Assembly: GCA_016185705.1 (NCBI GenBank)
Contig: JACPMZ010000005.1
Location: 128 to 64,127, forward strand
Length of the DNA stretch: 64,000 nucleotides
Origin: Candidatus Woesearchaeota archaeon
Lineage (GTDB): Archaea > Nanobdellota > Nanobdellia > Woesearchaeales > UBA10216
Direction: 5' to 3'
Every line of letters starts with the position of its first letter. Position 1 is the stretch's first letter. The notes beneath the pieces were generated by a model. It was not told the origin of the DNA. It did not search any database and saw only the letters and a program-made list of their open reading frames with translations. Below are positions 20,192 to 63,560 of this stretch, one piece after another. The translations under genes were made by a program, and so were the position numbers.

Positions 20192-20229
20192 GAGGGGGTG
20201 GAAGCAGAAGGCGTTATTTAAAAATAGTC

Positions 20230-21717: not shown

Positions 21718-21827
21718 GCACAAACATGAGATATCAGTGCTTAAATAATTTGCTAAATTACCGTTCCCTGCATCCCGGTGCCCGGATGCGACGGTTTTGC
21801 CACTTAACTTGAAATTACCCAGTCATA

Positions 21828-22729
21828 AGTGCTGTAGAAAATCTTAAGTAGCTGTCTTCCCAAAAGGGCTGTTGCCCTGATTGGGAAGAGCAGGGCGGAG
21901 TAGTGGCTCCGCCATGAAAAAGAAAGAAAGATTGTATAGAAAAATAATGCGGTTATGGAAACAGGCAGGCTTGCCTGCTTACCTACACAGGTTTGGTCCG
22001 AAAAAGTACAAAAGCGTTTTTCTGGCTTTCTGCTGGTTTGTGAACCAGCAGTGGGCGCATAGTTTGCGCCGTACTCAAGAACTCTTATTTGAGTTGGGTT
22101 TTCCAGTTCCGCATTGGACTACGATTCAGAAAGCTTCTGCCCGTATGAGCAGAATTCTTAGCTTGTTTCACAAGCTGACTGTCAGCTCTGAGAAGAGCTA
22201 CATTTGTGCTGTTGACAGCACAGGATTCTCACTCACTAACCCAAGCAGGTATTACACTAACATCTTTCAGGTGAAGGTTAGCTGTCCTGCTAAGCTTAGC
22301 GTTCTGGTTGATACCAGAACGAGCAAGGCTTTAGCCTTGTGCTTTCGTGCGCGACCAGCGCACGATGCGCGAGACGTGCCTTATCTGCTGAAGAATGCAG
22401 CAGTTTTGCCTGAGAAAATCGTAGGCGATTCGGCCTATGACGCTGAAGACAACGTCTTCAAGCCATGCTTCAACAAGCATATCGCTGCAATCGTTCAAGC
22501 CGAGAAAAGGCTGGGAACGTGGTTTTTATCGTCATAAAATGCGTAAGCATTATGACTTACGAACCTACCACCGAAGACCGGTGGTAGAAGGTTTCTTTTC
22601 AAGGCTTAAGCAACGTTTTGGAGGCAGCTTACGCTGCCATTCTGCACGCACACAGCGCGCAGAAATTTACGCGAGAGTTATACTACAGAACTTAAGTTCT
22701 GTAATTCACAGACTTTTTCTACAGCACTC
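21828..22729 (+). mobile_element. IS element (DDE transposase, IS4/IS5-like), 902 bp, with 8-bp target-site duplication
   Basis: Terminal inverted repeats AGTGCTGTAGAAAA (21828-) and TTTTTCTACAGCACT (-22728). They are flanked by the direct repeat CAGTCATA at 21820-21827 and 22730-22737. Confidence 0.8.
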
Positions 22730-22784
22730 CAGTCATAGAAACCTATATAAACACGTTTCGGGATTAAGGAGACATGGTTCTTGA
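21914..22784 (+). pseudogene. DDE transposase split by a +1 frameshift
   Basis: AVDSTGFS and GDSAYDAE in the first frame. PRKGWERGFYRHK...YHRRPVVEGFFSRLKQRFG in the +1 frame. The frames switch near 22490-22500, and I see no slippery heptamer there. Confidence 0.7.
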
Positions 22785-23628
22785 GCTGCTTATCAACCCC
22801 GCCAAGGTTGAGCGAAAGCCGTGGGAAGTATTCTTCATAGGGCTTGTTTACAGCTCCATAGCAATAGTATTCAGCATGTACGTGTTCAAAGACTACATCG
22901 GAATAGTCATGGTGTTCCTGACAACGCTGGCGTGCATATACTTTGTGCACAAAATGCTGCGGGCAGAAGAGCGCCAGGACCAGCCGGTCAGAAGCGAGCT
23001 GCACATACTGAAGGAGCACGGCAAAGCATTGAGCGTGCTCATGTTCCTGTTTCTCGGATTTGTAGTAGCGTTCTCGCTATGGCACATACTGCTTCCGGCA
23101 GACACGTCGCAGCAGGTTTTCGGGATACAGGAGCGCACCATACAGTGCATCAACCACGCAGGGGTGGAAGGGTGCGCGTCAGGAACACAGGCTGCATTCG
23201 GAAGAATCTTTGCCAACAACGTAAAAGTCCTGCTTTTCACCCTGACATTCGCATTTTTCTACGGCGCAGGATCAATATTCATACTGGCATGGAACGCCGC
23301 AGTTGTAGGAACGGCCGTAGGCCTTTTCGTAAGGAACAGCATAAGCGCAATAGCAGGCACGCTTGGACTTCCTTCAATCGCGCAATATTTCGGCGTGTAC
23401 TCGGCAGGAATCATGCGCTACATGACGCACGGCTCCTTTGAAATACTCGCATACTTCATGGCAGCACTGGCAGGAGGCATAATATCAATAGCGGTTGCCA
23501 GCCACGACTTCAGAAGCGCCCAGTTCAGAAAAGTGCTGTATGACTCTGTGGACCTGATAGCGCTTTCTGTAGGCGTATTATTCTTGGCAGCAATCATAGA
23601 AGTTTACATAACGCCGCTACTTTTCTAG
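22774..23628 (+). CDS. SpoIIM/DUF95-family integral membrane protein
   Basis: Multi-TM protein with ...FANNVKVLLFTLTFAFFYGAGSIFILAWNAAVVG... TATA CCTATATAAAC at 22743-22753 and AAGGAG just before the ATG. Confidence 0.7.
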   Translation: MVLELLINPAKVERKPWEVFFIGLVYSSIAIVFSMYVFKDYIGIVMVFLTTLACIYFVHKMLRAEERQDQPVRSELHILKEHGKALSVLMFLFLGFVVAFSLWHILLPADTSQQVFGIQERTIQCINHAGVEGCASGTQAAFGRIFANNVKVLLFTLTFAFFYGAGSIFILAWNAAVVGTAVGLFVRNSISAIAGTLGLPSIAQYFGVYSAGIMRYMTHGSFEILAYFMAALAGGIISIAVASHDFRSAQFRKVLYDSVDLIALSVGVLFLAAIIEVYITPLLF

Positions 23629-23745
23629 CATGCATGCGGCAAAATGCAGGATGATGACTTAAAAGCTGCTTGCATAAGTTAATGGAATTATTGCACTGTA
23701 AAAAAATGCGCTGCAATATGAAACCAGCTTTTCAGCCCCAAAAAG

Positions 23746-23856
23746 CCCGGAAACCCTGCGGAAGGCCCGGAAATCTTCCGGGAAGCTTAAAAGCCGTCCG
23801 GAAACTTTCCGGAAAAGCTGCAGGAACTTCCGGATTCTCCGGAAAGTTTCCGGAAA
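23746..23856. promoter_or_regulatory. array of eight helically phased (T)TCCGGAA(A) boxes
   Basis: CCGG cores at 23747, 23767, 23778, 23798, 23809, 23830, 23839 and 23850 (spacings 20, 11, 20, 11, 21, 9, 11). Most are arranged as TCCGGAAANTTTCCGGA dyads. Confidence 0.45.
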
Positions 23857-24313
23857 AAACAGGGCAAGACATATTAATTTGAAAAATAATAAAGAAAGCT
23901 ACGCCAGCGTTGGCTAATCAGGTTGGCCGCTTAGCTACGAACTAAGTGTCGTAAGACATCGGGGTTCAAAAGCTTTTCGGTTTTGCCGTTAGGTTGGAAT
24001 TGTCAGAAATCAAAGATTTCTGAACATGATCAGGGATCTTCGATTCCTGACATCCCCGCGCCGGCGCGTTTAAAAATGAAAAAAGCAGCGGGCAGGCATG
24101 GTGTAGTGAGCGCATATAAAGACAGGCTGGCGGGATAACAGTATCTCCGAAACTGCCTTAGTTCCATCCACTGCGCAGCACGCAGTGCCACAGCTGCAAT
24201 CGGAGATACTGGGATAAGCCAAAACATTATAACCCAATATAAAGCATATAAAAAAGCTTTTTAAATAGAGCGCAGTTAGCATATGTTTCGGCTCAAAGTA
24301 TGGGGGGATTGAA

Positions 24314-25306
24314 ATGAGAATAAACAACAGGGTCAATAAATTCTTTGCCGCTGCTACTGCGACGGTTGTTGCGATGGCAATTGCCGTGCTGCTTCTTGCT
24401 ACTGCTGCCTACGCGCAGGCACAGGGAGGATTGGCTGGCAGTTGCGGCAATGGTGTTTGTGAGAATTTTGGATGCCTGTCTTTAGACTGCGCAGCGCCGG
24501 AAACGTGGGAAAACTGCGCCCAGGACTGCCCGCCGAGTTGCAATGATGGGTTCAGGAACCAGGACGAAACAGGTGTTGATTGTGGCGGAAGCTGTTTTAA
24601 GAAGCATGTGCTCGAGGTGTGCGATGGAAAGGACAATGACAAAGACTGCCTGGTAGATGAGGACTGCAAAACCAATACGGGGAAGGTTGTTTCGGGGGGA
24701 GCTGTGCTGCCTCCCAGGAATGTTCCCGCAAAATCTGAAAAGTCCATCGTTGTAACTTCTGTTCCTTATCAGATTACAATTGGCCCTTCAGGGGAGATTA
24801 CAGTGACAGGCAATTCTTCACCAGTCAATCTTTCTGAAATCTGGCGCTTGGTTAATTCTTCCGGCACGCGTTCTGTACAGGACGCGAGTACAACTAAAGA
24901 ACAGGTTGGTTCAACTGAAACAGTAACTTCAGATGCACCTTTTTCCAGTTCAGCAACTGCCGAGCCTAGTGAGCCTCTGCCTACGCCAACTGTAATGAAT
25001 GTGGTTGCAGTTTCTGAACAAGATGAAAGCTTGATTAAGCCTGCACCTCCAGAAGAACCAAAGGAACTGATTGTTGAAGTGCAGGAAGAGGTTTACGAGT
25101 CTCCTCCTCCCTCGAATGGCCTCAGTAGGCTTCTGAGATTTTTAAACCGTGATTCGTGGGGAAAGCAGCCAGTCGAGGATGCGCCAAAGCCTGAAGATGC
25201 CAAAGAAACAGATGCCAAAGAAACAAGTGACGCTTACCAGAAGAATAAGGTAGTAAAGGAAGAAAGCCAATCACTTTTTACAAAAATGGCATCATGGTTT
25301 AGATGA
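24314..25306 (+). CDS. secreted/anchored Cys-rich protein with a low-complexity S/T/E/P/K tail
   Basis: N-terminal hydrophobic anchor, then CGNGVCE...CNDGFRNQDETGVDCGGSC...CDGKDNDKDC. GGGGGG-type SD before the ATG. ATGA overlap with the next gene. Confidence 0.65.
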   Translation: MRINNRVNKFFAAATATVVAMAIAVLLLATAAYAQAQGGLAGSCGNGVCENFGCLSLDCAAPETWENCAQDCPPSCNDGFRNQDETGVDCGGSCFKKHVLEVCDGKDNDKDCLVDEDCKTNTGKVVSGGAVLPPRNVPAKSEKSIVVTSVPYQITIGPSGEITVTGNSSPVNLSEIWRLVNSSGTRSVQDASTTKEQVGSTETVTSDAPFSSSATAEPSEPLPTPTVMNVVAVSEQDESLIKPAPPEEPKELIVEVQEEVYESPPPSNGLSRLLRFLNRDSWGKQPVEDAPKPEDAKETDAKETSDAYQKNKVVKEESQSLFTKMASWFR

Positions 25307-28300
25307 AACAACTGCTGCCTTCAGTTTTTGTAGTCTGGCTGCTTGTGTTTGCGCAGGTAAGCTATGGCCAGTCGCTTTCTGCAGCCAGCAGCATAACAGA
25401 GGTTGAGCCAGGAGTAAATTCCGGGGACGAGATATCTGTCCAGGACGATTCCTGTTCTTCCGCGGTTGAATTGGCACTCGGGAACTGGGACAGCTTTAAC
25501 AATATCAACCCTTCAGGTGATGTTGACTGGTATAAGTGGAACCTTGTTTCTGGCGGAAAATTTACTGTTGACGTTGATGTTCCCTCTAACAAGGACTATG
25601 ACGTTAAGGTATATAAGACCTGCGGGGGCAGCGTAATCTGTAGTTCAGCAAAGGGGCGCGGCTTGGACGAAAAGTGTAGTGCTGACGTTTCAAGCGGCTG
25701 GGTTTATGCCATGGTATACGGATACCAGGGAGACTCTGGTTTTTTGGAATTGTACTCAATTCGGGGCACTTTTTCACCGAATGCAGATCTGGTTCCTGCA
25801 CCCATAACAACTTCCCCTTCAAACCCAATCGAAACAGATTCCGTGACAATCCGATACGGGTCTACCAACATAGGCGCATCAGACATAATCACTGCATATA
25901 CAAGCAAGTTCTACATTGATAACAATCTCGTCCAGACCTGCACAAGTAGTAATGGAAAGCCGGCTGGAGCATCCGGGTTTTGTACATACACCTCAAAGCT
26001 TTCAGACGGCACTCGTGCGCTAAAAGTAATTGTTGACGCCGATAGACAAGTTCCTGAGTCCAACGAAGGCAACAATGAAAAGACTTCAAGTCTTAAGATT
26101 TTGCCCGACATTGACCTCAGGGTTGTTGACATATACACAGAACCTTCATCTCCTGACGACAGGAACAGCTTTAATTTAAGGGTCGTTGTAAGGAATGACG
26201 GGAAAATTTTTTTTAGCAATTTCAACACCAGGGTTTATCTTAATGGCCAATACTTCGGCGATTGTACTCACATTCTTCCAATGTTTGGCAATAGCGAAGA
26301 GACCTGCAAATGGGATAATCTCAGGTGGTCGGCAAACACTTACACGGTAAGGGCTGTCGCTGATTCAAACAGTGAAATTGAGGAAAAGAACGAAAACAAC
26401 AACGAGCGTGAGGAAACGGTAACTGTAACTCATGAGAACCAGTACGACCTAATTGTAACTGAAATCCTGACTGAACCCTCAAGCGTTAACGATCAGACAA
26501 CGTTCTCTATAAAGCACCTAATCAAGAACAACGGCCCAGACAGGATTTCCTCTCACACTGTAAGCAAGCTTTATAGGAACAATGAGCTTATTCATATTTG
26601 TAGTCACAGTGCAGGCTTTGATTCCGGCGAAACCAGGATTTGCACACTCCAGAACCAACGCTGGTCTTCGGGCACTTATGAGGTTAAGGCAGTGGCGGAT
26701 GCTGACAGTGAGATTTCAGAGACTGATGAAGGCAACAATCAGAGGAAAGAAGAATTCCGTGTTGATGAATCCTGTGTTGATAATGACGGTGACGGCTATG
26801 GCACTGGCTGCAGCAAAGGCAGTGACTGCAATGATAACGATAGAAACATCAATCCGGGCCAAGGTGAAATCTGCGGAGATGGACTTGACAATAACTGCAA
26901 TGGACAACAAAATGAAAACTGCTGCTCTCCAGAAAAACCTTACTACTGCACTAGAACAGATGGCTGCTGGCTCAACAAAGAAAGATGCGACACCGCAATT
27001 ATGTGTGGTGGCAGATGGTGGGCATGCAACGAGCCAAGCAAGTACAACATAAAATGCGTTAATGACGAGCCGGGCTGCTGCCTGCCACAGCACCCTTACT
27101 ACTGCCCCGAAAACAACTTCTGCTTCGGCGCTGACGGCTACTGTGACGGCAGGCCAGTGTACAACTGCAACGGTAAATATCAGGTCTGCAGCGAAAAGAA
27201 TTACTATGGTACGTGCTTTGGAGACGTGTTAAGGTGCTGCCCATCCGGAGAAAGCTGGTGGGAGAGCGATAAGCAGTGCCATAAGAGCTCAGAACCGCCG
27301 AAGTGCGCAGTGCCTGACGGCAGCTCTGCCAACTGCGACTGCGACACCGACTCGGAATGCAAAGCAGCTGACGCTTCCAGGCCTTACTGCGGAGAGGGAG
27401 GCAGTCTGTACGACGTCAGGACACCACAGGGCTTCCACGCCTGCCTCGCCACGAAGCCGAAGTATTGCGGCGATGGCATATGCGAAGGCAGCGAAACTTT
27501 CAGCAGCTGCAACAAGGACTGCGCGCAGAATGCGCCCAAAGGAAAGATAACTGTATCAGTAACACACTCGCAAGCAAAGCTGCCAATAAAATATGCAGGA
27601 ATATACGTTGATGGAAGCTTATCAGGGGGGACTGACCAGTTCGGCAAAGCTGTTGTTGAAGTTCCTTATGGAGTTAGGCATGTAAGGGTAAACTGTTTTT
27701 CCGGGAGCTTTTGTGGAGAACAAACAAGGGATGTGAAGAAAGAGCAGGAATTCATGAGTTTCTCCTGCGAATGCAGCGATGGAGATCTGGACAGCGATGG
27801 ATTCTCAGACCAAGATGAAATTTTAATAGGCAGCGACCCGCACGATGCCAAAAGCTATCCAGAAGGATTGACTTACAATCCTGTCAAATGCATTGCAGAT
27901 ACGATAAACATACTTGTGGTATGGCTTCGCGGTGGCGACCTCATACAAGCACATACAGCTGTTGTTCAAACTCTTAGTTCACCGGAAGTAAGCAGTGTTG
28001 CCGCGAGCGAACAGTCAGCAGTGATACTTCAAGCGCTTCAGCAAAATTATCCCGATGCCAGATTAGATGTCCAAAGCGGAATTACAATTCAAAATGCAGT
28101 AGAAAGGGCAGAATACATAGATGCAGTCCTCACACGGGATGGACTCCTGTACGTAATCAGTGATAACGAAACGCAAACAACTGCCATTGTGCAGATGCAA
28201 GCATCGTGTGTCGGGACCATAGTGGGCGCTGCTTATGGCGTAGGCCGCGGCATAGAGGATGATATCAGCATTCTAGAACTTCCTGTAATAGCAGTGAAGG

Positions 28301-29571
28301 GGCTCCTATTTGTTGTGGCAAATGCTGACGAGCTTAGCAAAGTTTACGACGGCTTTCTGGAAATGGTAGACGGGTTTATGGAAGTGATAAAAAATTTTGA
28401 TTTTGCCGAAACACGCTACCACCTTATAAAGTTCATATTTGAAGAAGGGAGAAAAACAAACCCTTACCGCGAAGATAAACAAAACGACAGGCACGCATAT
28501 TATCACTACCAACTTGGCTTCTTCTCAGGCTATGTAACAGGATACATTATTGAACAGGTTGTCTTCTTGAAGGTTGCCTTTGCGGCAGTAAAAACTGCCT
28601 TCAAAGCGAGCGGAAAATTGCTGTCGCGATTATCGGGTGGCGAGAACGTGCTTGAACTGCTGGCGGCTATTACAAAACACCCGGCGCTTGGTATAGAAAT
28701 AGCAAAAAAAGTCAGCAACCTCCCTTACGTCAAAGGCGCTGTACAACTGTGGGCCAACGACGAACTTATCCTGCTTGGAAAGCTTACAAAATATAATGAA
28801 AATTTTGTGAAAACTCTTACGAAAGCAGAAGCGCAAAACGTCCTTAAACTTACAAAAAACATCCCCGATGCAAGTCTTGAGAAGCTCGTTACAAGCAAGC
28901 TCGGTCAGCACACGCTGAAAGCCGCAGACGCCACCGACGGCCTCATAGCAAAGCAGGCGAAGCTTGTGGAAAGGTGGGGGGTTAAGAATGCTGATGATGT
29001 GGTCACAAAATGCACTCTGTTCATTTTCTGCAATACTGACAGGATAAAAGATTTGAACAAGCTACTAAAGGCCGCACCCGATGAGTTTGCCAACAAATTG
29101 AAAGTAGAAAATGCGCATGGATTGCTCAGCTATAAACACCTTGATGAGCTGACGGAAGCATTAACTGAACTGAAAAGCGTAAAAGGATTTGACGATGTGG
29201 CAGGCCCACTAGCCAACCAGAATACATGGACAGGCCCAGCGTTCCAGTTAAGAAAAGGACTTCAGCTTAGGAAAGCAGGGAATACGGTTGTGGAGTTTGA
29301 AAGAGGTACTGGTAGCACATTCATAGATATAGTATACAAAAAGCCAAATTCCGCAGTTGAAATTTATATGGAAACAAAAAACACGGTTTCAATAGACCCC
29401 AACTTTCTAGTTTCTTTGAAAAATCAATTAACGAAGTATTACGCAGAAACAGGCGATTGGGATAGAGTTAGATTATCTTCTGGGAATGGAATTCCGCCAG
29501 AAGTAAGAAAAGAGTTGGTAAATGAATTTGGAGAAAGCGCCGTTGAAAAAATATTAAAAGGTGATATCTGA
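25303..29571 (+). CDS. giant secreted surface protein: PPC-like domain, 3 CARDB-like repeats, Cys-rich region, TSP3-like repeat, AT-rich C-terminal region ending in a PD-(D/E)xK-like motif
   Basis: Signal peptide. GDVDWYKWNL...YAMVYGY. Three repeats ending NEGNNE, NENNNE and DEGNNQ. DNDGDGYG..DCNDNDRNINPG..CGDGLDNNCNG. DSDGFSDQDEILIGSDPHD. C-terminal FIDIVYKK...VEIYMETKN. Confidence 0.85.
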   Translation: MKQLLPSVFVVWLLVFAQVSYGQSLSAASSITEVEPGVNSGDEISVQDDSCSSAVELALGNWDSFNNINPSGDVDWYKWNLVSGGKFTVDVDVPSNKDYDVKVYKTCGGSVICSSAKGRGLDEKCSADVSSGWVYAMVYGYQGDSGFLELYSIRGTFSPNADLVPAPITTSPSNPIETDSVTIRYGSTNIGASDIITAYTSKFYIDNNLVQTCTSSNGKPAGASGFCTYTSKLSDGTRALKVIVDADRQVPESNEGNNEKTSSLKILPDIDLRVVDIYTEPSSPDDRNSFNLRVVVRNDGKIFFSNFNTRVYLNGQYFGDCTHILPMFGNSEETCKWDNLRWSANTYTVRAVADSNSEIEEKNENNNEREETVTVTHENQYDLIVTEILTEPSSVNDQTTFSIKHLIKNNGPDRISSHTVSKLYRNNELIHICSHSAGFDSGETRICTLQNQRWSSGTYEVKAVADADSEISETDEGNNQRKEEFRVDESCVDNDGDGYGTGCSKGSDCNDNDRNINPGQGEICGDGLDNNCNGQQNENCCSPEKPYYCTRTDGCWLNKERCDTAIMCGGRWWACNEPSKYNIKCVNDEPGCCLPQHPYYCPENNFCFGADGYCDGRPVYNCNGKYQVCSEKNYYGTCFGDVLRCCPSGESWWESDKQCHKSSEPPKCAVPDGSSANCDCDTDSECKAADASRPYCGEGGSLYDVRTPQGFHACLATKPKYCGDGICEGSETFSSCNKDCAQNAPKGKITVSVTHSQAKLPIKYAGIYVDGSLSGGTDQFGKAVVEVPYGVRHVRVNCFSGSFCGEQTRDVKKEQEFMSFSCECSDGDLDSDGFSDQDEILIGSDPHDAKSYPEGLTYNPVKCIADTINILVVWLRGGDLIQAHTAVVQTLSSPEVSSVAASEQSAVILQALQQNYPDARLDVQSGITIQNAVERAEYIDAVLTRDGLLYVISDNETQTTAIVQMQASCVGTIVGAAYGVGRGIEDDISILELPVIAVKGLLFVVANADELSKVYDGFLEMVDGFMEVIKNFDFAETRYHLIKFIFEEGRKTNPYREDKQNDRHAYYHYQLGFFSGYVTGYIIEQVVFLKVAFAAVKTAFKASGKLLSRLSGGENVLELLAAITKHPALGIEIAKKVSNLPYVKGAVQLWANDELILLGKLTKYNENFVKTLTKAEAQNVLKLTKNIPDASLEKLVTSKLGQHTLKAADATDGLIAKQAKLVERWGVKNADDVVTKCTLFIFCNTDRIKDLNKLLKAAPDEFANKLKVENAHGLLSYKHLDELTEALTELKSVKGFDDVAGPLANQNTWTGPAFQLRKGLQLRKAGNTVVEFERGTGSTFIDIVYKKPNSAVEIYMETKNTVSIDPNFLVSLKNQLTKYYAETGDWDRVRLSSGNGIPPEVRKELVNEFGESAVEKILKGDI
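29281..29568 (+). other. candidate restriction-endonuclease-fold (PD-(D/E)xK) toxin tip
   Basis: D codon at 29326-29328 and E-T-K at 29371-29379, both on hydrophobic strand-like segments, followed by LKNQLTKYY. This is a motif-level call only. Confidence 0.4.
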
Positions 29572-30212
29572 TGGACTATGCAAGGATACAATATGCACCA
29601 ATACGAAGGGCATTTAACAGGGATTTTGCGTTTGGCTTAGTCAGGCAAGTTGCAGATGGTTGCAAAAGCGTAAATAAAAGTGCTGAAAAAGAGATGCTGC
29701 TAAGAGATGTAAGCGATGCAGAACTGGGTGAAATTTTGTACAACAACGGCGAAGGGGAGTCGTTGTTTTTCCAAGTAAATGATTTGTACAATTTTGCAAT
29801 CCATGCAGGACCCAAAAAAAGTAATGTGCATATTGTAATAAGTGTGCCCTTGCCTTTCCTAAGAAAAGCGAATAGCAAAAGAGTGATAGAAGATATTATA
29901 AGCAGGAGCAAGGCGGTATATGATTATCTGCGCCCCGAGTATGCAATTGGAGACGAAGAAGGGCTGTTTATTGATAAAAAGGTAGAATATAAGGATGGCG
30001 TGTTCTGGCTGAATTTTTACAGCCCGCAAGTAGTGGAAAGAATTGGCATAGAAAAACTGAAAAGCGTGCCGTATGGAACAATAGACGAACTGGCAGACGG
30101 CGGTGTGCTCCTAATCAGGGGGCGAACGCCTGATGAGAATAGTGAACACCGAACGGAAATTAAGCGCTACCTGTTCGGAAGAGGATTTGTCAACAAATTA
30201 TTTGGAAGATGA
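29571..30212 (+). CDS. cytoplasmic 213-aa protein in the immunity-gene position
   Basis: The ATG shares a nucleotide with the stop of 25303..29571 (TGATG). ATGA overlap with the next gene. No signal peptide. AT-rich like the preceding toxin tip. Confidence 0.6.
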   Translation: MDYARIQYAPIRRAFNRDFAFGLVRQVADGCKSVNKSAEKEMLLRDVSDAELGEILYNNGEGESLFFQVNDLYNFAIHAGPKKSNVHIVISVPLPFLRKANSKRVIEDIISRSKAVYDYLRPEYAIGDEEGLFIDKKVEYKDGVFWLNFYSPQVVERIGIEKLKSVPYGTIDELADGGVLLIRGRTPDENSEHRTEIKRYLFGRGFVNKLFGR

Positions 30213-33200
30213 ACAAGATTAAAATAACGGAACGCGCAGCTTACGCATTACTCATAGCACTGCTGCTCCTGCTCGCAGCATCCTTCCTCCCTCTCGGCAA
30301 TGGCGGCAGCGGCAGTGAAAAAGCTGTATTGCTCTTGCAGCAGATTGAAGCAGTTGACAACCTTCCTCCTGCTGTTGATGAGAAGATTGAGCCTGCGGTG
30401 AAGGAGCAGGTTAAGGAAGCGATTTATTTGGCGGCTGCTGGGGGCTCGAAGGAAGCTGCTGAAAAAAGGAAGGTTGAGGTGCTTGTGAAGGCATCTTCTG
30501 AGGATGCTAAGAAAGTGATAAAGAAGGCTGGCGGGGAAATATTGAACGTTGTTGACTCTGTTGACAAAACAGCAAAGTATTTCGCAGTGAAGGCAGATGC
30601 CGACAAAGTGGCAGCCATAGCAGCGGGTAATGATGTTTCCAGCATATCGCAAAGAAGCAAGGTTTACCCAACACTTGACTCAAGCGTGCCTGTCATTAAG
30701 GCGGACTCGTTCTGGAATGCCGGCTTTAAGGGCAGCGGAGTAAGGGTAGCTGTGCTGGACACAGGCATAGACAAAAACCACCCAATGCTCAAGGACAAGG
30801 TAGATGCTGAGAGGGATTTCACCGGCAGCGGCACAGCTGCTGACGACTGCGGTCACGGAACCCATGTTGCAGGCATAGTTGCAGGCTCAAAGGCTAACGG
30901 CGGATATGATGGCGTTGCGCCTGACGCGAAGCTGCTGAATGCCAAGGTCCTCACACTTAACTCAAATGGCGAATGCGAGGGAAACGTGGATTACATAATA
31001 GCAGCCATAGGATGGGCTCTTGACCCTGACGGCAGCTCTGCAACCGATGACGGTGCTAAAGTAATAAGCATGAGCCTTGGAGGGAAGGGTGAAACCAGCA
31101 TGAGCCTTGAGAATGAGTTGCAGTCTGCTGTGGCTAAAGGCGCTGTAGTTGTTGTATCAAGCGGCAATTGCGGAAAAGGATGCCCAAGCCCTAACTGCGG
31201 GCAATTCCAGGGAGTAACATGGCCGGGCAACTCGCCAAGCGTCATAACTGTGGGAGCTGTTGACGACTCAAAAAACGTTGCGTGCTTCTCAAGCGGCGAA
31301 AACGTCAAGAACGTGGGCATCAAGCCCGACTTCGCAGCGCCTGGCGTTGACGTGATGTCCTCTGTTCCCGGCGGCTATGAATCAAAGAGAGGCACGAGCA
31401 TGGCAGCCCCTCACGTTTCAGGCGCTGCTGCGCTTATGCTTGGCAAAGACCCAAGCCTGAAGCAGGATGACGTAAAGAGAATTCTTGAAAACACTGCTTT
31501 GGACCTTGGCGAAATAGGGAAAGACACGAGCTACGGCTTCGGCCTTATTGACATGGCAAAGGCGCTTGTTTACAAGGAAGGGCTTGAGTTCAGCATAGGG
31601 CTTGAAAAGCAAATCATAAGCGGCAGCAGTCAGAAGATTACAGTTACGGTTTACGACGACGTTCAGGTTAACAGCGTCAAGGCAACAGTGACGAAGCCTA
31701 ACGGCGCAAAAAGCGCAGAGTTTACCTTTGCTGGCAGCGGCAGCAACGTTTACACTTACGACTACACCGATACTGTTTTGATGGGAAATTACGCTGTTGA
31801 GGTTGCTGTCAATTACGGAGGCACAAGCGGGAGTTCAGGAGCCGGCAGCGAAGGCGGCGGCGAAGCAGGCAGCGGCTCAGATGGCTCATCCAGCATAGAG
31901 GTAACCCAGACAGCCGGCTTCAAAGTTACTTCGCTCACAGGCGACTTCGGAAGCGTTGAGGAGATAAACATTTCGCAGCAGCAGTTCCTGAGCCAGAACC
32001 TTGCAGCCAACGTAACTTTCGCAAACACTGCCGATGTTGAGCTTGTCTTCTCTGCGCTGATGCACTTGCTGAAGATAGATGACGGCTCAATAGGTGCGGC
32101 TCCATCGCAGGAAATAAGATTGCCTGCTGTAACAGTTGCGGCAAATTCGAAGGCAACAGAAGCTGTTAGCAACGCGCTTGAAGTAGGTCCTGGCAACTAC
32201 ACGCTGAGGATAGTGACTGACTACGGCGCAGGGAGTGCGGTGAACGAGATGAACATAACCGTTGTTGATGACTTGGCGCCTGTTATTGCAGGGTATGAGT
32301 ATGACAGCGGCGCATATCAGCGGAGCCCGAGAGTTGCAAAGTTCACGATTTACGAGCATTCTGACATAACAGTTAACATTACGGCAAAAGGAACAGTTAC
32401 GTGCACTGATTCCTGCACAGATGCCTTAACCACTGAACCGATTGACATTAATTACTCTGCTGTTGTAGTGCAGCAGGGCAACGAAAAAGAATTGGCGGTT
32501 ACGCTGTATGAAAACACTGACGAAGCAACTTTGCATTCCGCAGAAATCGGGATATGCGACGAAAGCGGCAACTGCGCAGTAAGCGATGTGCTGGACTTCA
32601 GGGCTGATGCGTGCGAAGGCAGGCACATCCTAATCGCAAAGAGCTATGAAGAGGGCTCTGCATTTGAGCGTGCAGCAGCAGGCCTGTGCATGTTTGCATT
32701 AAACAAAAGCGTAAGCAGGAACCCTCCAGGCAGCTACCTGAAGCAGTTTGACGCTGTAATCTGGAGCACAGGAACAGACCTGGCAAACATTGACGACGCT
32801 GATGCAGCTTCATTGACTGATTATTATGATGAAAAGGGCCGAATAATTGTTGAAGGAAGCGATGTAGCATTCAACCATGTTGATGATGAATTAATGACTG
32901 AAGTGCTGCATTCTGAGCTGGCATATGACCTGGGCATATCGGTTTCTTCAGCTGAAGACCTGAATAATTTAAGCATAAACCACACGCAGAAGCATCCGCT
33001 GCTAAGCGGCATTGAAACTCCGACATTCTTTAACGCAAGCATTGACCCGTTCCCTGACTCAATAAAACCGGTCAATGGCAGCGGGGAGATTGCAGTATGG
33101 GACGGGCTTGAGGAAGGCGGCTCAGCAATTGTTGTTTATGAGAGCCAGCAGAAGCGTTCGCTGTTCCTGCCTTTCAGCATCAATGCACTGAATGAGGCTG

Positions 33201-36200
33201 ACAGGGATTTGCTGGCAGCCAATGCAGTTGACTGGCTGCTGGCAGACACTGCCATAGACATAGTTCCTGCCTCGCTTGACCACGGAATGCTGTTTGAAGG
33301 CCCGGTGGAGTTCACTGCAGTTGTTGAAAGCAGTGGAGGAGCAACAGCAGTGCCTGAAATAAAAATATTTGTTGATGGCAATGAGCAGGACGCTGCTGCC
33401 GGCTTCGGAAATAACGGCGTGTTTGAATACCCTGTAACCGCTGAGCTAAACGCAGGGCTGCATAAAGTAAAAGTAATAGCAAACAGCGACCTGGCGATTG
33501 AAGAAAACAACTACATCAACAACATTGCCGAATATGAGCTTGCGGTTTATCCCCAAAAAGCCGACCTGATTGTGGAAGGGCTGAAATACAGCTATGATGA
33601 CAGCGAGCAGGCAGTTGTTCTGGAAGTGAATGTGTCAAACATGGGCGGAACAGAAGCGAATTCGCTGCTGAGAATCTTCGCTGATAATTCGGAAGTCAGC
33701 TCGCAGCACATACATTTAGCATCTGCTGAAAAAAAGACTGTTATGTTCACGATTCTGTCGGACAAGGGCAATTATGCATACAAGGCAGTTATTGACCCTG
33801 ACAACACAGTAGCAGAGTACAACGAATCAAACAATGAATTGCAGGAAACGCTTTACCTTTGCAGCAAAAGCAGGATTTTAGTGGTGGATGACAACGACGC
33901 AGAATTTTATTCCACTGAGCAGCCGAGCAGCGCACCGCTGATTCTTGATGCGCTGAAGCTGAAGGGCTACTGCACCAGCTACGTCAGCCAGCAAGAAGAA
34001 ATGATAACAATTGAAGCAGCCAATGAATATCCTGTGCTGATATGGAGCGCAGGCGACTACTTTGACGGCGTGCTTAATGAGCAGGATGCTGAGTTCCTGC
34101 AAAACTATGATGGCGCTTTGCTGCTGGAAGGGGCAGACGTTGCTCTTGAGCATGCTGGCAGCAGCTTATTTGAGGAACTGACAGGAAGCGTGCACCTGAG
34201 GGATATGCTGCTGGAGGGTGAAGAAATTCTGCTGAACATAAGTGAACATGCGATAACAGCAGGCATTGAAGAAATCAAGCTGCTCAAAAACGATTCACCT
34301 TATCCGGACAGCGTTCAGCCAGTGAATAGCATCGCGGTAGCAGGATGGGATGACGGCGCAGCAATCACAGCGCTTGAGCAGGACGGCAGGAAAGCTGTAT
34401 TTTACGGATTTTCTGCGGATGCTGTGGAAAACATGGATGCACTGCTTCTGAACACAGTAGAATGGCTGCTCATAGCGCCGAACAACGCTCCTGTAATCCA
34501 CAACGTTACAAATATAACAGCAGATGAAGGGGAAATAGTTTTTGTTGAAGTCAACGCAACAGATGCGGATGGAGACGAATTAACGTACAGCATCAGCGAT
34601 GAACGGTTTGTGCAGAACGGAAACAGATTTGTGTGGCAGACGAACCACACAGATGCCGGAGAGTATGAATTCGGGATTAGCGTAAGCGACGGAGCTGAAA
34701 CCGCAGCTGCACTCATTAATGTAACAGTGCTGGACGTAAACCTGCCGCCAGAGCTGCTTGTAAGCGTTGATTCAGCGCTTGTTCCTCAGGACGTTCCTGT
34801 AAGATACGCTGACGAAGGCGTAGAAGTAAAGTTCAGCGTCCTCGCAACAGACCCTGACAATGATGAGCTGATGTATGAGTGGCTGATAAACGGAACAGCC
34901 GCATCAACAACTGCAAACTTCACCCGCACATTTGCTTACAACGAAAGCGGAACGTACAATGTAACAATAAGGGTAAGCGACGGCCAGGATACAGTATCAT
35001 ATGAATTCACGCTGATAGTAAAAGATACCATGCAGTGCGAACCTGCCAGTGTGCAGCTCTGCGCAGTGCAGGAAGGCGTATGCAGCGAAAGCACGGATAC
35101 GTGCAGCGAAGAAGGCCAGTGGCCTGGCTGCGCCGCAGATACGTATGCAGAACACAGCGAAATGTATGAAGCAGCTGAAACCATGTGCGACCAGCTTGAC
35201 AACGACTGCGACGCACTGACCGACGAGGGCAGGGTGTGCAACACAGCGCCTAAGCTGAACATTGCAAACCAAACTGTATCAGAGAATGAGAAACTGCAGT
35301 TTATCGTAACAGCAGCAGACAGCGAAAATGACGTGCTGCATTATAATGCAGCAGGGCTTCCTGAAGGCGCAGCATTTGATAATGAAACCGCTGAATTTGA
35401 GTGGACGCCTACGTACGAGCAGGCCGGGCTGTACTCGGCAGGGTTTAATGTGACTGATTTGCTGCTGTGGGATTATGCTGAGATTAACATTACAGTGCTT
35501 GAGACAAACAGGCCGCCAGAGTTTGCAAGCATAGAAATGAATGATGCAGTGGATGAGACGGCAGACGCAGTAATAACAGTGAATGCTGTTGACCCTGACG
35601 GGCACGAAATTTTGTACAGCATCAATGATTCCAGGTTTGCGCAGGACGGCAACAGATTTACGTGGACAACAACTTATGAAGATGCTGGCATTCACAGCTT
35701 CCTGCTGACCATATCTGACGGCGACCTCAGCAAGTCAGCAGTGGTTGAAGTTACTGTAACGAATGTGAACAGGCCGCCAATGCTTAATACGGTTGGCAAC
35801 AAAACAGTGCACGAGGATGAAAAGCTGAGCTTTGCGCTGGACGCAGAGGATGCTGATGGCGATTTGCTGAAATATGAGATGGTGACCGACGCTATTGGAG
35901 CATCGCTGGACAGCGAAACAGGGCTGTTTGAGTGGACGCCTGACTATGACGACGAAGGGAAGTATAAAGCAGTGCTTGTTGTTTCAGATTATCTGCTGAC
36001 AGACTATGAAGAAATAAACATAACCGTGCTTAACACCAACCGCAAGCCAAAACTTACAGGGCTGTTCGGAAACTATGCGGTTCTGGAAACTGAGCTGGCT
36101 GTTGTGGGCGTTAATGCAGAGGATCCTGATGGCGATGAGTTGCGTTACAGCATCAACGATTCGAGGTTTGTGCAGGACAGGAATGCATTCAGCTGGCAGA

Positions 36201-37432
36201 CAGGGTATGATGATGCCGGGCTGTATCCAGTCATAGTCACAGTTTCTGACGGTCAGGACAATATTTCAGTGTCCTTTGAGGTGCGGGTGTTCAACCTGAA
36301 CAGGCCGCCGCTGCTGCATGAGATTGGCAACAGGACAGTTAAGGAGAACGAGACGCTGAGCTTCACTTTGGAAGCGGATGACCCTGACAATGAGCCGCTC
36401 AGATTCGCTTTGGAAATGCCAGCAGAACTGGCAGGCGTAATGTTTGATGAGGAAAGCGGAGAGTTTGAGTGGACGCCTTCGTTCAGCCAGGCAGGCATTT
36501 ACAGATTTGCGTTCAGCGTTACAGACTTCCTGCTGCTTGACCTGGAGGAAATAAACATCACTGTTCAGAACGTGAACAGGCCGCCGGTGATACACATGAT
36601 ACTGGTTGAGCCGCCGGGCACGGAAATGCATCCTGGCGAGCAGAAAAGCTTTACTGTGCTGGGCAGCAACGGAAACGTGCATTACGAGTGGCTGCTTGAC
36701 GGCGTAAAAGTGCATGAGTCCAGCTCGACCTACACTTATAAGCCAGGCGCTGACTCTGTTGGAGCGCATGTGTTGAAAGTGAACTTAACTGATGGAGAGT
36801 TCAGCACGTCCCGCGAAATACCTGTAACAGTAACGCAGAAAGCGATTGATTTCCTCGTAAGCGGAGAAGCGGAAGCTGATGAAGGCGAATTAGTGCGGCT
36901 GAGGGTTGAGGTATTCAACGCAGCTGATGCAGCGATAAAAATAAACGACAGCAGGTTCAAAAAATCTGACGGAACCATTCACGGCGCTGGCGAGTGCGGC
37001 GGAGCAGCCGGGGAATGCAAAGATCCCGCGTATGAATGCGTTGCTGAGTGCCCTGACTGCTTTGGAATATGCCACCTTGAAGCTGATTCATTAGTTAAGC
37101 TGTTTGACTGGCAGACGGGCTATAACGATGCGGGAGGGTATGAAATTCTTGTAACAGTTTCTGACGGATTTGCCAGCGCATCCAAAGCAGTAAGCGTTGT
37201 TGTGAGAAATGCGAATGCTCCGCCGTGCGGAAGCTACGGCGACTTTAACGGCGACAAGTCAGTGACTGAGAAAGACGTGCAGATGCTGCTTGACCACATC
37301 AGCGGAAGAAGCAAATTGCTGGATGGCAGATATGCTGATGTCAATGGCGATGGAAAAGTAAATCTCTTTGACTCAATCTACATGCAGCATTTCATAGGAG
37401 GCCATATTAATACGTTCCCGGTCTGCAACTAG
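30209..37432 (+). CDS. giant secreted S8 subtilisin-like protease with CARDB-like and about 8 cadherin/He_PIG-like repeats and a C-terminal dockerin
   Basis: VAVLDTGID, HGTHVAG and GTSMAAPHVSG. Repeats of NRPP...DADGD(E/L)L.YS....F......F.W.P...(D/Q)AG.Y......SDG (about 34490-36600). Dockerin at the end. Confidence 0.9.
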   Translation: MNKIKITERAAYALLIALLLLLAASFLPLGNGGSGSEKAVLLLQQIEAVDNLPPAVDEKIEPAVKEQVKEAIYLAAAGGSKEAAEKRKVEVLVKASSEDAKKVIKKAGGEILNVVDSVDKTAKYFAVKADADKVAAIAAGNDVSSISQRSKVYPTLDSSVPVIKADSFWNAGFKGSGVRVAVLDTGIDKNHPMLKDKVDAERDFTGSGTAADDCGHGTHVAGIVAGSKANGGYDGVAPDAKLLNAKVLTLNSNGECEGNVDYIIAAIGWALDPDGSSATDDGAKVISMSLGGKGETSMSLENELQSAVAKGAVVVVSSGNCGKGCPSPNCGQFQGVTWPGNSPSVITVGAVDDSKNVACFSSGENVKNVGIKPDFAAPGVDVMSSVPGGYESKRGTSMAAPHVSGAAALMLGKDPSLKQDDVKRILENTALDLGEIGKDTSYGFGLIDMAKALVYKEGLEFSIGLEKQIISGSSQKITVTVYDDVQVNSVKATVTKPNGAKSAEFTFAGSGSNVYTYDYTDTVLMGNYAVEVAVNYGGTSGSSGAGSEGGGEAGSGSDGSSSIEVTQTAGFKVTSLTGDFGSVEEINISQQQFLSQNLAANVTFANTADVELVFSALMHLLKIDDGSIGAAPSQEIRLPAVTVAANSKATEAVSNALEVGPGNYTLRIVTDYGAGSAVNEMNITVVDDLAPVIAGYEYDSGAYQRSPRVAKFTIYEHSDITVNITAKGTVTCTDSCTDALTTEPIDINYSAVVVQQGNEKELAVTLYENTDEATLHSAEIGICDESGNCAVSDVLDFRADACEGRHILIAKSYEEGSAFERAAAGLCMFALNKSVSRNPPGSYLKQFDAVIWSTGTDLANIDDADAASLTDYYDEKGRIIVEGSDVAFNHVDDELMTEVLHSELAYDLGISVSSAEDLNNLSINHTQKHPLLSGIETPTFFNASIDPFPDSIKPVNGSGEIAVWDGLEEGGSAIVVYESQQKRSLFLPFSINALNEADRDLLAANAVDWLLADTAIDIVPASLDHGMLFEGPVEFTAVVESSGGATAVPEIKIFVDGNEQDAAAGFGNNGVFEYPVTAELNAGLHKVKVIANSDLAIEENNYINNIAEYELAVYPQKADLIVEGLKYSYDDSEQAVVLEVNVSNMGGTEANSLLRIFADNSEVSSQHIHLASAEKKTVMFTILSDKGNYAYKAVIDPDNTVAEYNESNNELQETLYLCSKSRILVVDDNDAEFYSTEQPSSAPLILDALKLKGYCTSYVSQQEEMITIEAANEYPVLIWSAGDYFDGVLNEQDAEFLQNYDGALLLEGADVALEHAGSSLFEELTGSVHLRDMLLEGEEILLNISEHAITAGIEEIKLLKNDSPYPDSVQPVNSIAVAGWDDGAAITALEQDGRKAVFYGFSADAVENMDALLLNTVEWLLIAPNNAPVIHNVTNITADEGEIVFVEVNATDADGDELTYSISDERFVQNGNRFVWQTNHTDAGEYEFGISVSDGAETAAALINVTVLDVNLPPELLVSVDSALVPQDVPVRYADEGVEVKFSVLATDPDNDELMYEWLINGTAASTTANFTRTFAYNESGTYNVTIRVSDGQDTVSYEFTLIVKDTMQCEPASVQLCAVQEGVCSESTDTCSEEGQWPGCAADTYAEHSEMYEAAETMCDQLDNDCDALTDEGRVCNTAPKLNIANQTVSENEKLQFIVTAADSENDVLHYNAAGLPEGAAFDNETAEFEWTPTYEQAGLYSAGFNVTDLLLWDYAEINITVLETNRPPEFASIEMNDAVDETADAVITVNAVDPDGHEILYSINDSRFAQDGNRFTWTTTYEDAGIHSFLLTISDGDLSKSAVVEVTVTNVNRPPMLNTVGNKTVHEDEKLSFALDAEDADGDLLKYEMVTDAIGASLDSETGLFEWTPDYDDEGKYKAVLVVSDYLLTDYEEINITVLNTNRKPKLTGLFGNYAVLETELAVVGVNAEDPDGDELRYSINDSRFVQDRNAFSWQTGYDDAGLYPVIVTVSDGQDNISVSFEVRVFNLNRPPLLHEIGNRTVKENETLSFTLEADDPDNEPLRFALEMPAELAGVMFDEESGEFEWTPSFSQAGIYRFAFSVTDFLLLDLEEINITVQNVNRPPVIHMILVEPPGTEMHPGEQKSFTVLGSNGNVHYEWLLDGVKVHESSSTYTYKPGADSVGAHVLKVNLTDGEFSTSREIPVTVTQKAIDFLVSGEAEADEGELVRLRVEVFNAADAAIKINDSRFKKSDGTIHGAGECGGAAGECKDPAYECVAECPDCFGICHLEADSLVKLFDWQTGYNDAGGYEILVTVSDGFASASKAVSVVVRNANAPPCGSYGDFNGDKSVTEKDVQMLLDHISGRSKLLDGRYADVNGDGKVNLFDSIYMQHFIGGHINTFPVCN
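37226..37429 (+). other. type-I-like dockerin module
   Basis: GDFNGDKSVTEKDVQMLLDHISG ... ADVNGDGKVNLFDSIYMQHFIGG: two EF-hand-like D.NGDG.V...D segments. Confidence 0.7.
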
Positions 37433-37440
37433 CAGTTAAT

Positions 37441-37481
37441 AGTAAAGCGCATTAATTTACAAACATTTTGTGCGCTTTACT
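37441..37481. terminator. hairpin between convergent genes (possible bidirectional terminator)
   Basis: AGTAAAGCGCA ... TGCGCTTTACT, an 11-bp stem followed by a T-rich run (ATTTATTTTT). Confidence 0.45.
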
Positions 37482-37485
37482 AAAT

Positions 37486-38049
37486 TTATTTTTGCAATTT
37501 GCTGTAATTCAACCGGCTCGTGTTTTGTAGCTCGCCTTTTTCAGCAGCTATTTTGTTATTCAGCTCTTCCGCAAGCTTCCTGTCAGGAATGTGCTTTGCT
37601 ATATTCGGCACTTCATGCATGAAATCCGGCGGTTTATCCTTCCAGTTCTTCTCAATTTCCCTGAACATCTGGTTTTTGATGGGTGCGGCAACGCTGTTCT
37701 GGTTTTCAATAAGGCAAAGCTTTTCGTAAAACCAAAAGTACCATTTCCTGTCTGGCGTGCTCTGCAGCATAGCCTCTTCGTATATGGCGTCGTAATTGAG
37801 GGGCTCTTGCATCAGCCTGTCGCAGTCGTCAATGTCGCCCACCCTTGGAGTCATTGCCTTTAAAAGAAAGATGTCTTCGTTTGCGGCAAGAAACACCTGA
37901 AGATTTCCTGCTTTCCTGTAAGGGTTTGCGCGTTTCTCCATGCTTTCGGTAAAACGCAGCATTTTGCCAACTTCTTTCAGGAAAATGTCAATTCTTGATT
38001 CTTCTCTTTCATACACCGCCAAAGCGGTAAGATAGAGCTCATCCTTCAT
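37486..38049 (-). CDS. hypothetical protein (187 aa), weak resemblance to the C-terminal part of AbiEii/DUF6036-type nucleotidyltransferases
   Basis: ...FLLKAMTPRVGDIDDCDRLM... resembles the K..A..R..D..D motif. There is no N-terminal NTase motif, so the call is weak. Confidence 0.4.
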   Translation of the reverse strand: MKDELYLTALAVYEREESRIDIFLKEVGKMLRFTESMEKRANPYRKAGNLQVFLAANEDIFLLKAMTPRVGDIDDCDRLMQEPLNYDAIYEEAMLQSTPDRKWYFWFYEKLCLIENQNSVAAPIKNQMFREIEKNWKDKPPDFMHEVPNIAKHIPDRKLAEELNNKIAAEKGELQNTSRLNYSKLQK

Positions 38050-41870: not shown

Positions 41871-41920
41871 CAACGCTCAACAAGATAATATTTATATACT
41901 ATTACTGCCAAAAATCGTGC

Positions 41921-63488: not shown

Positions 63489-63560
63489 TGGGGCTGCCGT
63501 GATTCGAACACGGGTTCTAGCAACCCCAATGCTAGGTGATGCCAGCTACACTACAGCCCC
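63489..63560 (-). tRNA. tRNA-Pro (GGG), intron-less
   Basis: GGGGCTG-TA-GTGT-AGCTGGC-ATCAC-C-TAGCA-TTGGGGT-TGCTA-GAAC-CCGTG-TTCGAAT-CACGG-CAGCCCC-A. Confidence 0.85.

Follow-up and report, generated by a model that had tools for sequence, protein, structure and literature searches.

The four-gene cluster at 24314-37432 of a DNA stretch from a Candidatus Woesearchaeota archaeon (assembly GCA_016185705.1, contig JACPMZ010000005.1) very probably encodes a polymorphic toxin system at its core, one that depends on Sec and belongs to a DPANN archaeon. The stretch analysed is 64,000 nucleotides (nt) long and is termed the window; all coordinates follow its numbering. The cluster is composed of four open reading frames (ORFs) on the + strand: ORF1 (24314-25306, 330 amino acids (aa)), ORF2 (25303-29571, 1422 aa), ORF3 (29571-30212, 213 aa), and ORF4 (30209-37432, 2407 aa). 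The core comprises the C-terminal tip of ORF2, a predicted nuclease domain, and ORF3, its proposed cognate immunity protein. We directly observe the anatomy of the proteins, the polymorphism of the tip, the co-variation of tip and immunity gene, the fold of the nuclease model, and the gene order. Judged from sequence, the cluster and its relatives display every testable feature by which a polymorphic toxin system is defined at that level.

From these patterns we infer toxicity, neutralisation, a delivery route, a target, and roles for ORF1 and ORF4. ORF2 would be exported and displayed as a long surface protein with CARDB, Cys-rich, and stalk regions, and its PD-(D/E)xK tip would be toxic once in the cytoplasm of a target cell. 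ORF3, cytoplasmic and encoded by the overlapping next gene, would bind and block the tip nuclease, guarding the producer and its kin. A junction motif between scaffold and tip would serve as the recombination boundary for exchange of tip and immunity cassettes. The S8-protease giant ORF4 and the small secreted ORF1 would be conserved accessory parts of the module; the likeliest role of ORF4 would be to process or release the toxin, or to aid breach of the target surface.

Tips, junction motif, and downstream partners

P0004, the closest homologue of ORF2, is 1343 aa long, comes from a groundwater Woesearchaeota metagenome-assembled genome (MAG), and is 61% identical to ORF2 from residue 518 to about residue 1300. 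Calculated over 30 residues at a time, the identity reaches 80-93% within residues 1129-1233, drops to about 45% within residues 1234-1278, and is at most 23% afterwards. The break falls just after the junction motif ADATDGLIAKQAKLVERWG (residues 1208-1226; consensus ADATDxLIAKQxKLVxxWG). Together with the helical pre-toxin linker (residues ~1227-1298), the motif occupies 28912..29196 on the + strand and forms the scaffold/tip boundary. It precedes four different tip types and is also retained at the start of two orphan cassettes, L003 P0005 and L013_6497. The G+C content falls from about 45-47% to 37-39% over 29250-30000, with 45-55% in the surrounding sequence. The dip covers the tip and the first two thirds or so of ORF3, consistent with a laterally exchanged cassette. 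By sequence, ORF2 and its relatives have the conserved body with a hypervariable C-terminus behind a conserved motif that characterises polymorphic toxins.

A word-indexed protein search with the ORF2 C-terminus returned one homologue. An exhaustive HMMER search with residues 1230-1422 against 1.8 billion representative proteins gave six tip relatives, and the match is at the extreme C-terminus in each of them. Five have the same CARDB/TSP3 scaffold type or are fragments of it; the sixth, P0005, is only 254 aa long, with the tip preceded by a signal peptide and the junction motif. The occurrence of the tip on unrelated scaffolds was rejected, all matches being members of the ORF2 protein family or short orphan cassettes. 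A scan of metagenome contigs for further relatives returned only a near-duplicate of L009.

The gene that follows the tip changes with the tip. We compared the loci of all tip-bearing proteins and those found by a stalk-profile scan of GTDB genomes (loci are labelled L and a number). A tip of the window class (type A, PD-(D/E)xK) is followed by an ORF3 homologue as the next gene in all 13 loci that carry it, 14 pairs in total (window, L002, L003 twice, L004, L005, L006, L007, L012, L014, L015, L016, L018, and L020). The divergent tips of L015 and L016 are tied to type A by hhalign (probability 88%, E 2.8e-6). Type B tips (four pairs: L001, L009, the start of L015, and one L016 orphan) are followed by a family of 141-159 aa, the type C tip of L010 by a 229-aa protein, and the type D tip of L013, a member of the barnase family, by Barstar. 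No ORF3 homologue is present at this place where the tip differs (L001, L009, L010, and L013), and the pairing of tip type with downstream family has no exception across the loci compared. The pattern points to an immunity gene directly downstream that co-varies with the toxin type, as is characteristic of polymorphic toxins.

Barnase and Barstar are the classic pair of a secreted toxin and its inhibitor. In L013, the tip matches the Pfam Ribonuclease (barnase) family with 46.9 bits and the next gene matches Barstar with 73.3 bits, both above threshold. Of all single findings, this pair at the homologous site argues most strongly that the site is a slot for toxin/immunity cassettes.

ORF3 (29571..30212, + strand) has no signal peptide and co-varies with the tip, and it has no match in Pfam or NCBIfam. 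Its sole close relative among 5.8 billion proteins is encoded on a 977-bp contig, 5 bases after a tip of the same type. The sequence-only reading of this DNA had placed a toxin/immunity pair inside the cluster; at the sequence level, that claim is now strongly supported by the swapping of the tip together with the next gene, by the nuclease model, and by the barnase/Barstar relative.

As a separate observation, L020 (6634-10477) encodes a shorter scaffold of 786 aa with a D...ExK tip, followed by two tandem ORF3-like genes and no S8 gene. Its contig is 214 kb long, carries PAS/GAF histidine kinases, and probably comes from an organism with a larger genome.

Five of the 11 members of the ORF3 family match TsiV/DUF3396 (PF11876) at profile positions ~136-239, at sub-threshold scores. 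ORF3 itself has no TsiV/DUF3396 match, and a search of PDB sequences with the ORF3-family profile gave no match below E 0.027 and none named TsiV. Kinship to TsiV is possible and is taken as a lead, not as membership. TsiV has been shown experimentally to be an immunity protein against PD-(D/E)xK VRR-Nuc effectors (PMC9635880).

Orphan cassettes are present in tandem arrays in three related loci: L003 (3-2295), L013 (6138-6832), and L016 (3291-5614). Each starts with its own Sec-type signal peptide, followed by the pre-tip linker. Where the orphan contigs continue (L003 and L016_4026), the tip and then the immunity gene follow; the L013_6497 and L016_5339 orphans are cut by contig ends. The L003 and L013 orphans keep the junction motif, and those of L016 have only the divergent pre-tip linker of their own clade. 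Cassettes of this make-up indicate that the tip is exported and that cassettes are exchanged. Comparable orphan arrays are known from contact-dependent inhibition (CDI) and Rhs loci. Judged from the sequences of these relatives, the system includes the orphan cassettes expected of polymorphic toxins.

The toxin tip (residues ~1299-1422; 29197..29571, + strand) is assigned to the PD-(D/E)xK, or restriction-endonuclease, fold by AlphaFold2, Foldseek, and sequence alignment. The nuclease-like core makes up the last ~120 residues of ORF2, from a helix that begins at about residue 1310 to the stop codon. An AlphaFold2 model computed from an eight-sequence alignment has a mean predicted local distance difference test score (pLDDT) of 87.4 and a predicted template modelling (TM) score of 0.84, with core pLDDT above 90; a single-sequence model was poor (pLDDT 52.6) and was not used. 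The model shows a helical linker followed by an alpha-beta-beta-beta-alpha-beta core (in model numbering, helix 107-121, strands 125-132, 137-143, and 150-156, helix 163-180, and strand 186-190). Foldseek against the PDB places NucS/EndoMS at the top (probability 1.0, E 0.03-0.06), followed by Cdn1/Can2, VC1899, Hjc, XisH, SfsA, the AddAB nuclease, restriction enzymes, and CdiA-CT 4g6v.

The candidate catalytic residues are E1331/E1333, D1342 (FIDIVY), and E1357 and K1359 (YMETK). The alignment of the tips keeps E-x-E, D-I-x-Y, and E-x-K, with the E invariant. In the model, the core has the expected fold and carries the putative catalytic D...(D/E)xK on its second and third strands, as in PD-(D/E)xK nucleases. 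One divergent tip relative matches Mrr_cat weakly (E 0.019); the window tip does not. Searches of PDB sequences with the tip, ORF3, and both profiles gave no significant match; those to Bd3460 (E 1.3) and FKBP (E 0.03) were rejected as noise.

The scaffold of ORF2 (residues 1-1203; 25303..28911, + strand) was delineated by Pfam and the family alignment. It is composed of a signal peptide, a PPC-like DVDWYKW region, three CARDB domains (1.8e-33), a MopE/Cys-rich region (MopE motif, 1e-9), a beta-sandwich, a TSP3 motif that scores below the Pfam threshold, and a stalk. Hydrophobic segments that resemble export signals are found at the N-termini of ORF1, ORF2, and ORF4 but not of ORF3, in agreement with the sequence-only reading. 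ORF2 starts with MKQLLPSVFVVWLLVFAQVSYG and continues with Q, and the hydrophobic segment at residues 4-22 scores 1.81. These export signals were judged from hydrophobic segments. By its sequence, ORF2 is predicted to be the exported multidomain protein that a polymorphic toxin system would have.

The stalk (residues ~850-1200) is conserved and Gly-rich, contains hydrophobic segments at residues 988-1006 and 1078-1096, and has no match in Pfam or NCBIfam. The family alignment shows invariant C, G, Y, E, and Q columns. The glycine-rich pattern CVGxxxGxxYGxGxG and the hydrophobic GFxxGYxxEQ segment may insert into a membrane.

Several observations weigh against a polymorphic toxin system. The E-values of the Foldseek matches are weak (at least 0.03) despite high probabilities and a coherent family of matches. 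K1359 is present in six of the eight aligned tips (Ser in two) and D1342 in seven (Glu in one). The window tip has no Pfam match even at E <=10 and no PDB sequence match, so it would be a new sequence family of a known fold. The TsiV matches of the ORF3 family score 14-18 bits, under the Pfam cut-off of 25, and no orphan cassette lies within the 64-kb window. The role of the S8 protease in toxin processing is argued from conserved adjacency only, and the shorter relative L020 has no S8 gene. Finally, the hydrophobic segments of the stalk are moderate and are followed by Lys-rich sequence; if they spanned the membrane of the producer, the tip would be cytoplasmic.

In that case, ORF2 would be a membrane-anchored adhesin or receptor whose nuclease-fold end faces the cytoplasm, ORF3 would be its regulatory or binding partner, and the pair would act as a signalling or abortive-defence device. 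The conserved segments 988-1006 and 1078-1096 with the Lys-rich sequence behind them follow the positive-inside rule, ORF3 has no export signal, and defence effectors can also have PD-(D/E)xK domains, as do two of the fold matches, Cdn1 and Can2. However, the segments contain E, Q, and K and reach only 1.3-2.2 on the Kyte-Doolittle scale, and the orphan cassettes position a Sec-type signal peptide right before the linker and tip (in L003 and L013, right before the motif). The swapping of tip and partner as a cassette is the pattern of polymorphic toxins, and a relative has barnase and Barstar at the same position. We consider a cytoplasmic, signalling or defence role of the tip very unlikely.

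The tip could also be aimed at the host or partner cell of a presumed episymbiont, for nucleotide scavenging, with ORF3 serving for self-protection during synthesis only. The loci come from DPANN-type MAGs, generally small-genome, host-dependent symbionts (PMC11329633), and a large adhesin-like scaffold together with a giant surface protease would suit attachment to a host. However, the wide diversification of tips and immunity proteins and the orphan cassettes are the signature of competition among kin, not of a fixed host-directed enzyme; we consider this alternative improbable.

Gene order and accessory proteins

The order ORF1-like gene, giant, immunity gene, S8 giant is found in L001, L004, L005, L006, L009, and L012, and the same order with a different upstream gene in L014, L015, and L018, of which L018 comes from a MAG that carries the label Diapherotrites. 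The intergenic spacings are -29 to +55 nt across the related loci, and the surrounding genes differ. Almost all related loci with a named lineage are from Woesearchaeota or Diapherotrites MAGs (DPANN), and all relatives with full gene order are MAG contigs. Since order and spacing recur in other archaeal MAGs and the locus is contiguous in independent assemblies, the arrangement is beyond chance. The sequence-only reading had staked itself on gene order in relatives, and the order is conserved. By sequence comparison, and as had been proposed, the four genes appear to be a conserved module with tight spacing, in which a toxin/immunity pair is embedded among exported surface proteins.

An optional gene lies between the immunity and S8 genes of some loci and encodes a Cys-rich lipoprotein (L001, L005, and L009) or an RDD membrane protein (L014 and L018). 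The lipoprotein-like inserts are 207-221 aa long with a lipobox-like ...GC (L001 14516-15139, L005 4481-5146, and L009 7465-8118); the window has none.

In ORF4, which is predicted to be exported, an S8 subtilase domain precedes CARDB, Big_9/cadherin-like, He_PIG, and PKD repeats, and the C-terminus holds a predicted type-I dockerin. The Peptidase_S8 match (PF00082; 192.6 bits, 1.2e-56) covers profile positions 1-288 of 288, and the triad is D184 (VLDTGID), H216 (HGTHVAG), and S397 (GTSMAAPH). By these features, ORF4 is predicted to be a full-length Peptidase S8 with an Asp-His-Ser triad. Its orthologues in L001, L004, L005, L006, L009 (partial gene), and L012 are 34-51% identical over ~1,500-2,000 aa, and up to 73% in the S8 domain. 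More distant S8 genes are present in L014 and L015 (S8 domain 45-47% identical) and, by Pfam only, in L018. Besides the window, an S8 giant is thus located downstream in all nine related loci with enough downstream sequence. That ORF4 processes or releases the toxin, or helps to breach the target envelope, is suggested by this adjacency, and we rate it slightly below an even chance.

The dockerin of ORF4 (Dockerin_1, residues 2343-2389; 38.9 bits against a cut-off of 22.9, 1e-9) had been read as part of the layout of the cluster. It is found on the window protease only; because it is missing from seven S8 homologues, it falls outside the conserved design. No cohesin was found in the four products by Pfam.

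ORF1 had been described as an anchor protein. Its hydrophobic N-terminus ends in AYA followed by QAQ, like a cleavable signal peptide, and the conserved part is the C-terminal basic motif, so the anchor assignment is not supported. Between the two lie Cys-rich/MopE-like repeats and an acidic Pro-rich linker, and ORF1 has no match in Pfam or NCBIfam. Homologues are encoded upstream of the giant in eight loci: L001 (two copies), L004, L006, L007, L009, L010 (two copies), L012, and L013. All begin with a signal peptide and end in an amphipathic, basic motif of the SFFxKVxxFFKRLF type. The Cys-rich repeats are dispensable, as the number of Cys residues in the family runs from 0 to 25 and Cys-rich modules are missing from three homologues.

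The C-termini of ORF1 (...SLFTKMASWFR, 25270-25303) and ORF3 (...RYLFGRGFVNKLFGR, 30170-30209) are both short, basic, amphipathic, F/L-rich motifs, each conserved within its own family. The likeness may reflect a common signal for docking or membrane binding, or it may be coincidental.

The toxin/immunity pair could be real and ORF1 and the S8 protease mere surface or nutrient-acquisition neighbours, adjacent by shared ancestry and not parts of a four-part machine. All S8-bearing loci are from a narrow set of DPANN MAGs, the protease C-terminal modules vary freely, dockerin included, a lipoprotein or RDD gene can intervene between the immunity and S8 genes, and L020 has scaffold, tip, and immunity gene without an S8 gene. 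However, the adjacency persists at 23-29% stalk identity and across Woesearchaeota and Diapherotrites MAGs in which the other surroundings are wholly different, and the spacings stay within -29 to +55 nt. In addition, subtilisin-type proteases are known to process bacterial polymorphic toxins, either as part of the toxin or from a neighbouring gene (PMC3482391, Tables 1 and 2). We regard mere neighbourhood as somewhat unlikely, and accessory parts of a polymorphic toxin module as the better description of ORF1 and ORF4.

A bolder extension of the polymorphic toxin reading is that the four genes encode a so far undescribed, DPANN-specific apparatus for contact-dependent toxin delivery. It would comprise a Sec-exported CARDB/Cys-rich stalk, a glycine-zipper-like membrane-insertion segment, exchangeable nuclease or RNase warheads, release by the S8 protease at the junction, and tethering or priming by ORF1 via its C-terminal FFKRLF helix. 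We consider this extension rather unlikely; if it is true, episymbionts with reduced genomes could fight kin, or attack hosts, with no need of a bacterial-type secretion machine.

Locus layout, transcription signals, and neighbouring genes

Each of the three junctions in the cluster is an overlap: ATGA at 25303-25306, TGATG at 29569-29573, and ATGA at 30209-30212. The ORF coordinates and overlaps given by the sequence-only reading are exact on re-reading. A candidate archaeal promoter and a G-rich ribosome-binding stretch precede ORF1 (24257..24313, + strand). In a pattern scan of the + strand over 24200-37520, TTTAAATA at 24260 is the sole match to TTTAWATA or WTTTAAAWA, and GGGGGG sits 6-12 nt ahead of the ORF1 ATG. 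This bears out the single TATA box and G-rich Shine-Dalgarno sequence noted earlier before 24314, with a weaker TATA-like TATATAA at 25610. Neither sigma-70-like matches (13 versus 15.2) nor intrinsic-terminator-like matches (12 versus 16.6) are enriched over shuffled sequence.

After ORF4, a hairpin AAAGCGCA...TGCGCTTT followed by a T5 run (37445-37493, + strand; found by reading the sequence) is a candidate transcription stop, and the next genes are on the opposite strand. T5-T8 runs also occur inside the cluster, for example at 26207-26214. One four-gene transcript would agree with the overlaps of the ORFs and with the absence of TATA-like pattern matches inside the cluster.

A run search found the locus in sequencing runs of groundwater DNA only, and independent assemblies of groundwater metagenomes contain it as one contiguous stretch. 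Strain-level replacement of the tip was not seen in contigs from four groundwater runs. At 34486 and 34489, the window has C and T, and all contigs from four independent groundwater runs have T and G; the mismatch is probably a consensus or assembly difference within ORF4.

Upstream of ORF1, a 685-bp gene-free stretch contains a dense array of TTCCGGAA-like boxes at 23740-23860 (ccggaaaccc, cccggaaatcttccgggaagc, gtccggaaactttccggaaaa, and similar), which may be a regulator-binding array for the four-gene cluster. A tRNA near 23900-24070 was rejected, as ARAGORN and Rfam report only a tRNA-Pro at 63489-63560. Further upstream, an ORF with a DDE_Tnp_1 transposase domain (21881-22537, E 1.4e-5) lies ~1.8 kb from the cluster and is followed by a SpoIIM-family membrane protein (22774-23628).

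Downstream, 39645-44704 holds two more large + strand ORFs, of 741 aa (no Pfam match) and 927 aa (CarboxypepD_reg). Neither has the ORF2 junction motif or the ORF2 tip. The 741-aa product could be another variable-tip protein.

In L001, which of the Woesearchaeota relatives is the closest, two RHS-repeat genes (for 536 and 249 aa) and a gene for a 1519-aa SpvB/TcdB_toxin_midN/RHS protein come after the S8 gene, at 19837-24032; by domain content, this is a second toxin locus, of the Tc/Rhs type, adjoining the first. The corresponding position of the window is occupied by an AAA_14/DUF4143 ATPase gene on the opposite strand.

Comparison with known systems

Polymorphic toxin systems have been studied in depth in bacteria. 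They were catalogued in 2012 in bacteria and a few archaea, and subtilisin-type proteases serve as in-built or neighbouring processing enzymes of the bacterial ones (Zhang et al., PMC3482391). Such systems are predicted in many archaea and are experimentally uncharacterised there, according to a passage of PMC8416519 that cites Makarova et al. 2019. Because protease-linked bacterial polymorphic toxins and archaeal predictions have already been described, the principle is known, and the claim that the layout is new to described systems stands only for the particular scaffold and layout. No description of the ORF2 scaffold or layout was found in our comparison; the archaeal list of Makarova et al. 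2019 lies outside it and may contain the family. Current Pfam and NCBIfam contain nothing that matches the scaffold, tip, ORF3, and ORF1 families or the arrangement with an obligatory giant S8 partner, and the literature on Woesearchaeota and polymorphic toxins gave passing mentions only.

Cell-cell interactions of DPANN archaea are central to their biology and mechanistically obscure. The locus offers a clean, testable archaeal case, with a defined junction motif and no fewer than four exchangeable toxin/immunity cassettes, barnase/Barstar among them. It adds a new family of nuclease tips, paired with an immunity family of its own, and two conserved accessory genes, one encoding a giant S8 protease, that are absent in this form from bacterial models. 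It could reveal how protein toxins are delivered by cells that lack an outer membrane and have no known injection machine.

The cluster closely resembles the polymorphic toxins of Sec and type II secretion, including Tox-REase/Imm (PMC3482391). In both, a signal peptide leads a multidomain protein, a variable C-terminal toxin lies behind a pre-toxin motif, and an immunity gene downstream co-varies with it; orphan cassettes, a REase-fold D...ExK tip, and a barnase/Barstar alternative are also shared. The differences are the DPANN host and the scaffold, which here is composed of PPC-like, three CARDB, Cys-rich, and TSP3 parts and a novel Gly-rich stalk, with no RHS, filamentous-haemagglutinin, or other described repeat body. 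In addition, the tip and ORF3 stay under Pfam thresholds here, and a separate S8 giant and an ORF1-type protein are conserved partners.

With CdiA/CdiI the cluster shares a long surface filament and a C-terminal PD-(D/E)xK-fold toxin after a conserved motif, which is VENN in CdiA and ADATDxLIAKQ in the cluster. An immunity gene downstream and orphan C-terminal toxin/immunity modules are common to both as well. CdiA-CT of Burkholderia pseudomallei (4g6v_A) is among the fold matches of the tip, as a weak one (E 0.3, TM scores 0.29/0.43). In contrast to CdiA/CdiI, there is no TpsA secretion domain, CdiB transporter, or filamentous-haemagglutinin repeat here, and archaea have no outer membrane.

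The TseV/TsiV pairs (PMC9635880) likewise combine a PD-(D/E)xK toxin with a cytoplasmic immunity protein of ~200-270 aa. They have tandem immunity duplicates, as in L020, and five members of the ORF3 family match the same region of the TsiV profile, albeit below threshold. However, TseV/TsiV are effectors of the type VI secretion system with PAAR; no genes of that system were seen in the four genes or the scanned neighbours, and the signal peptide of ORF2 points to Sec export instead. The window tip also has no VRR_NUC match.

Among archaeal systems, the cluster resembles the VARTIG modules of Thermococcales (PMC8416519), in which a large exported protein, there with Ig domains, has a hypervariable C-terminus and variable downstream genes. 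VARTIG has been proposed to act in conflict or in self/non-self recognition and is experimentally uncharacterised (PMC8416519). The variable part there is an Ig domain with no recognisable enzyme/immunity pair, whereas here the variable part is a set of putative toxin/immunity pairs that includes barnase and Barstar.

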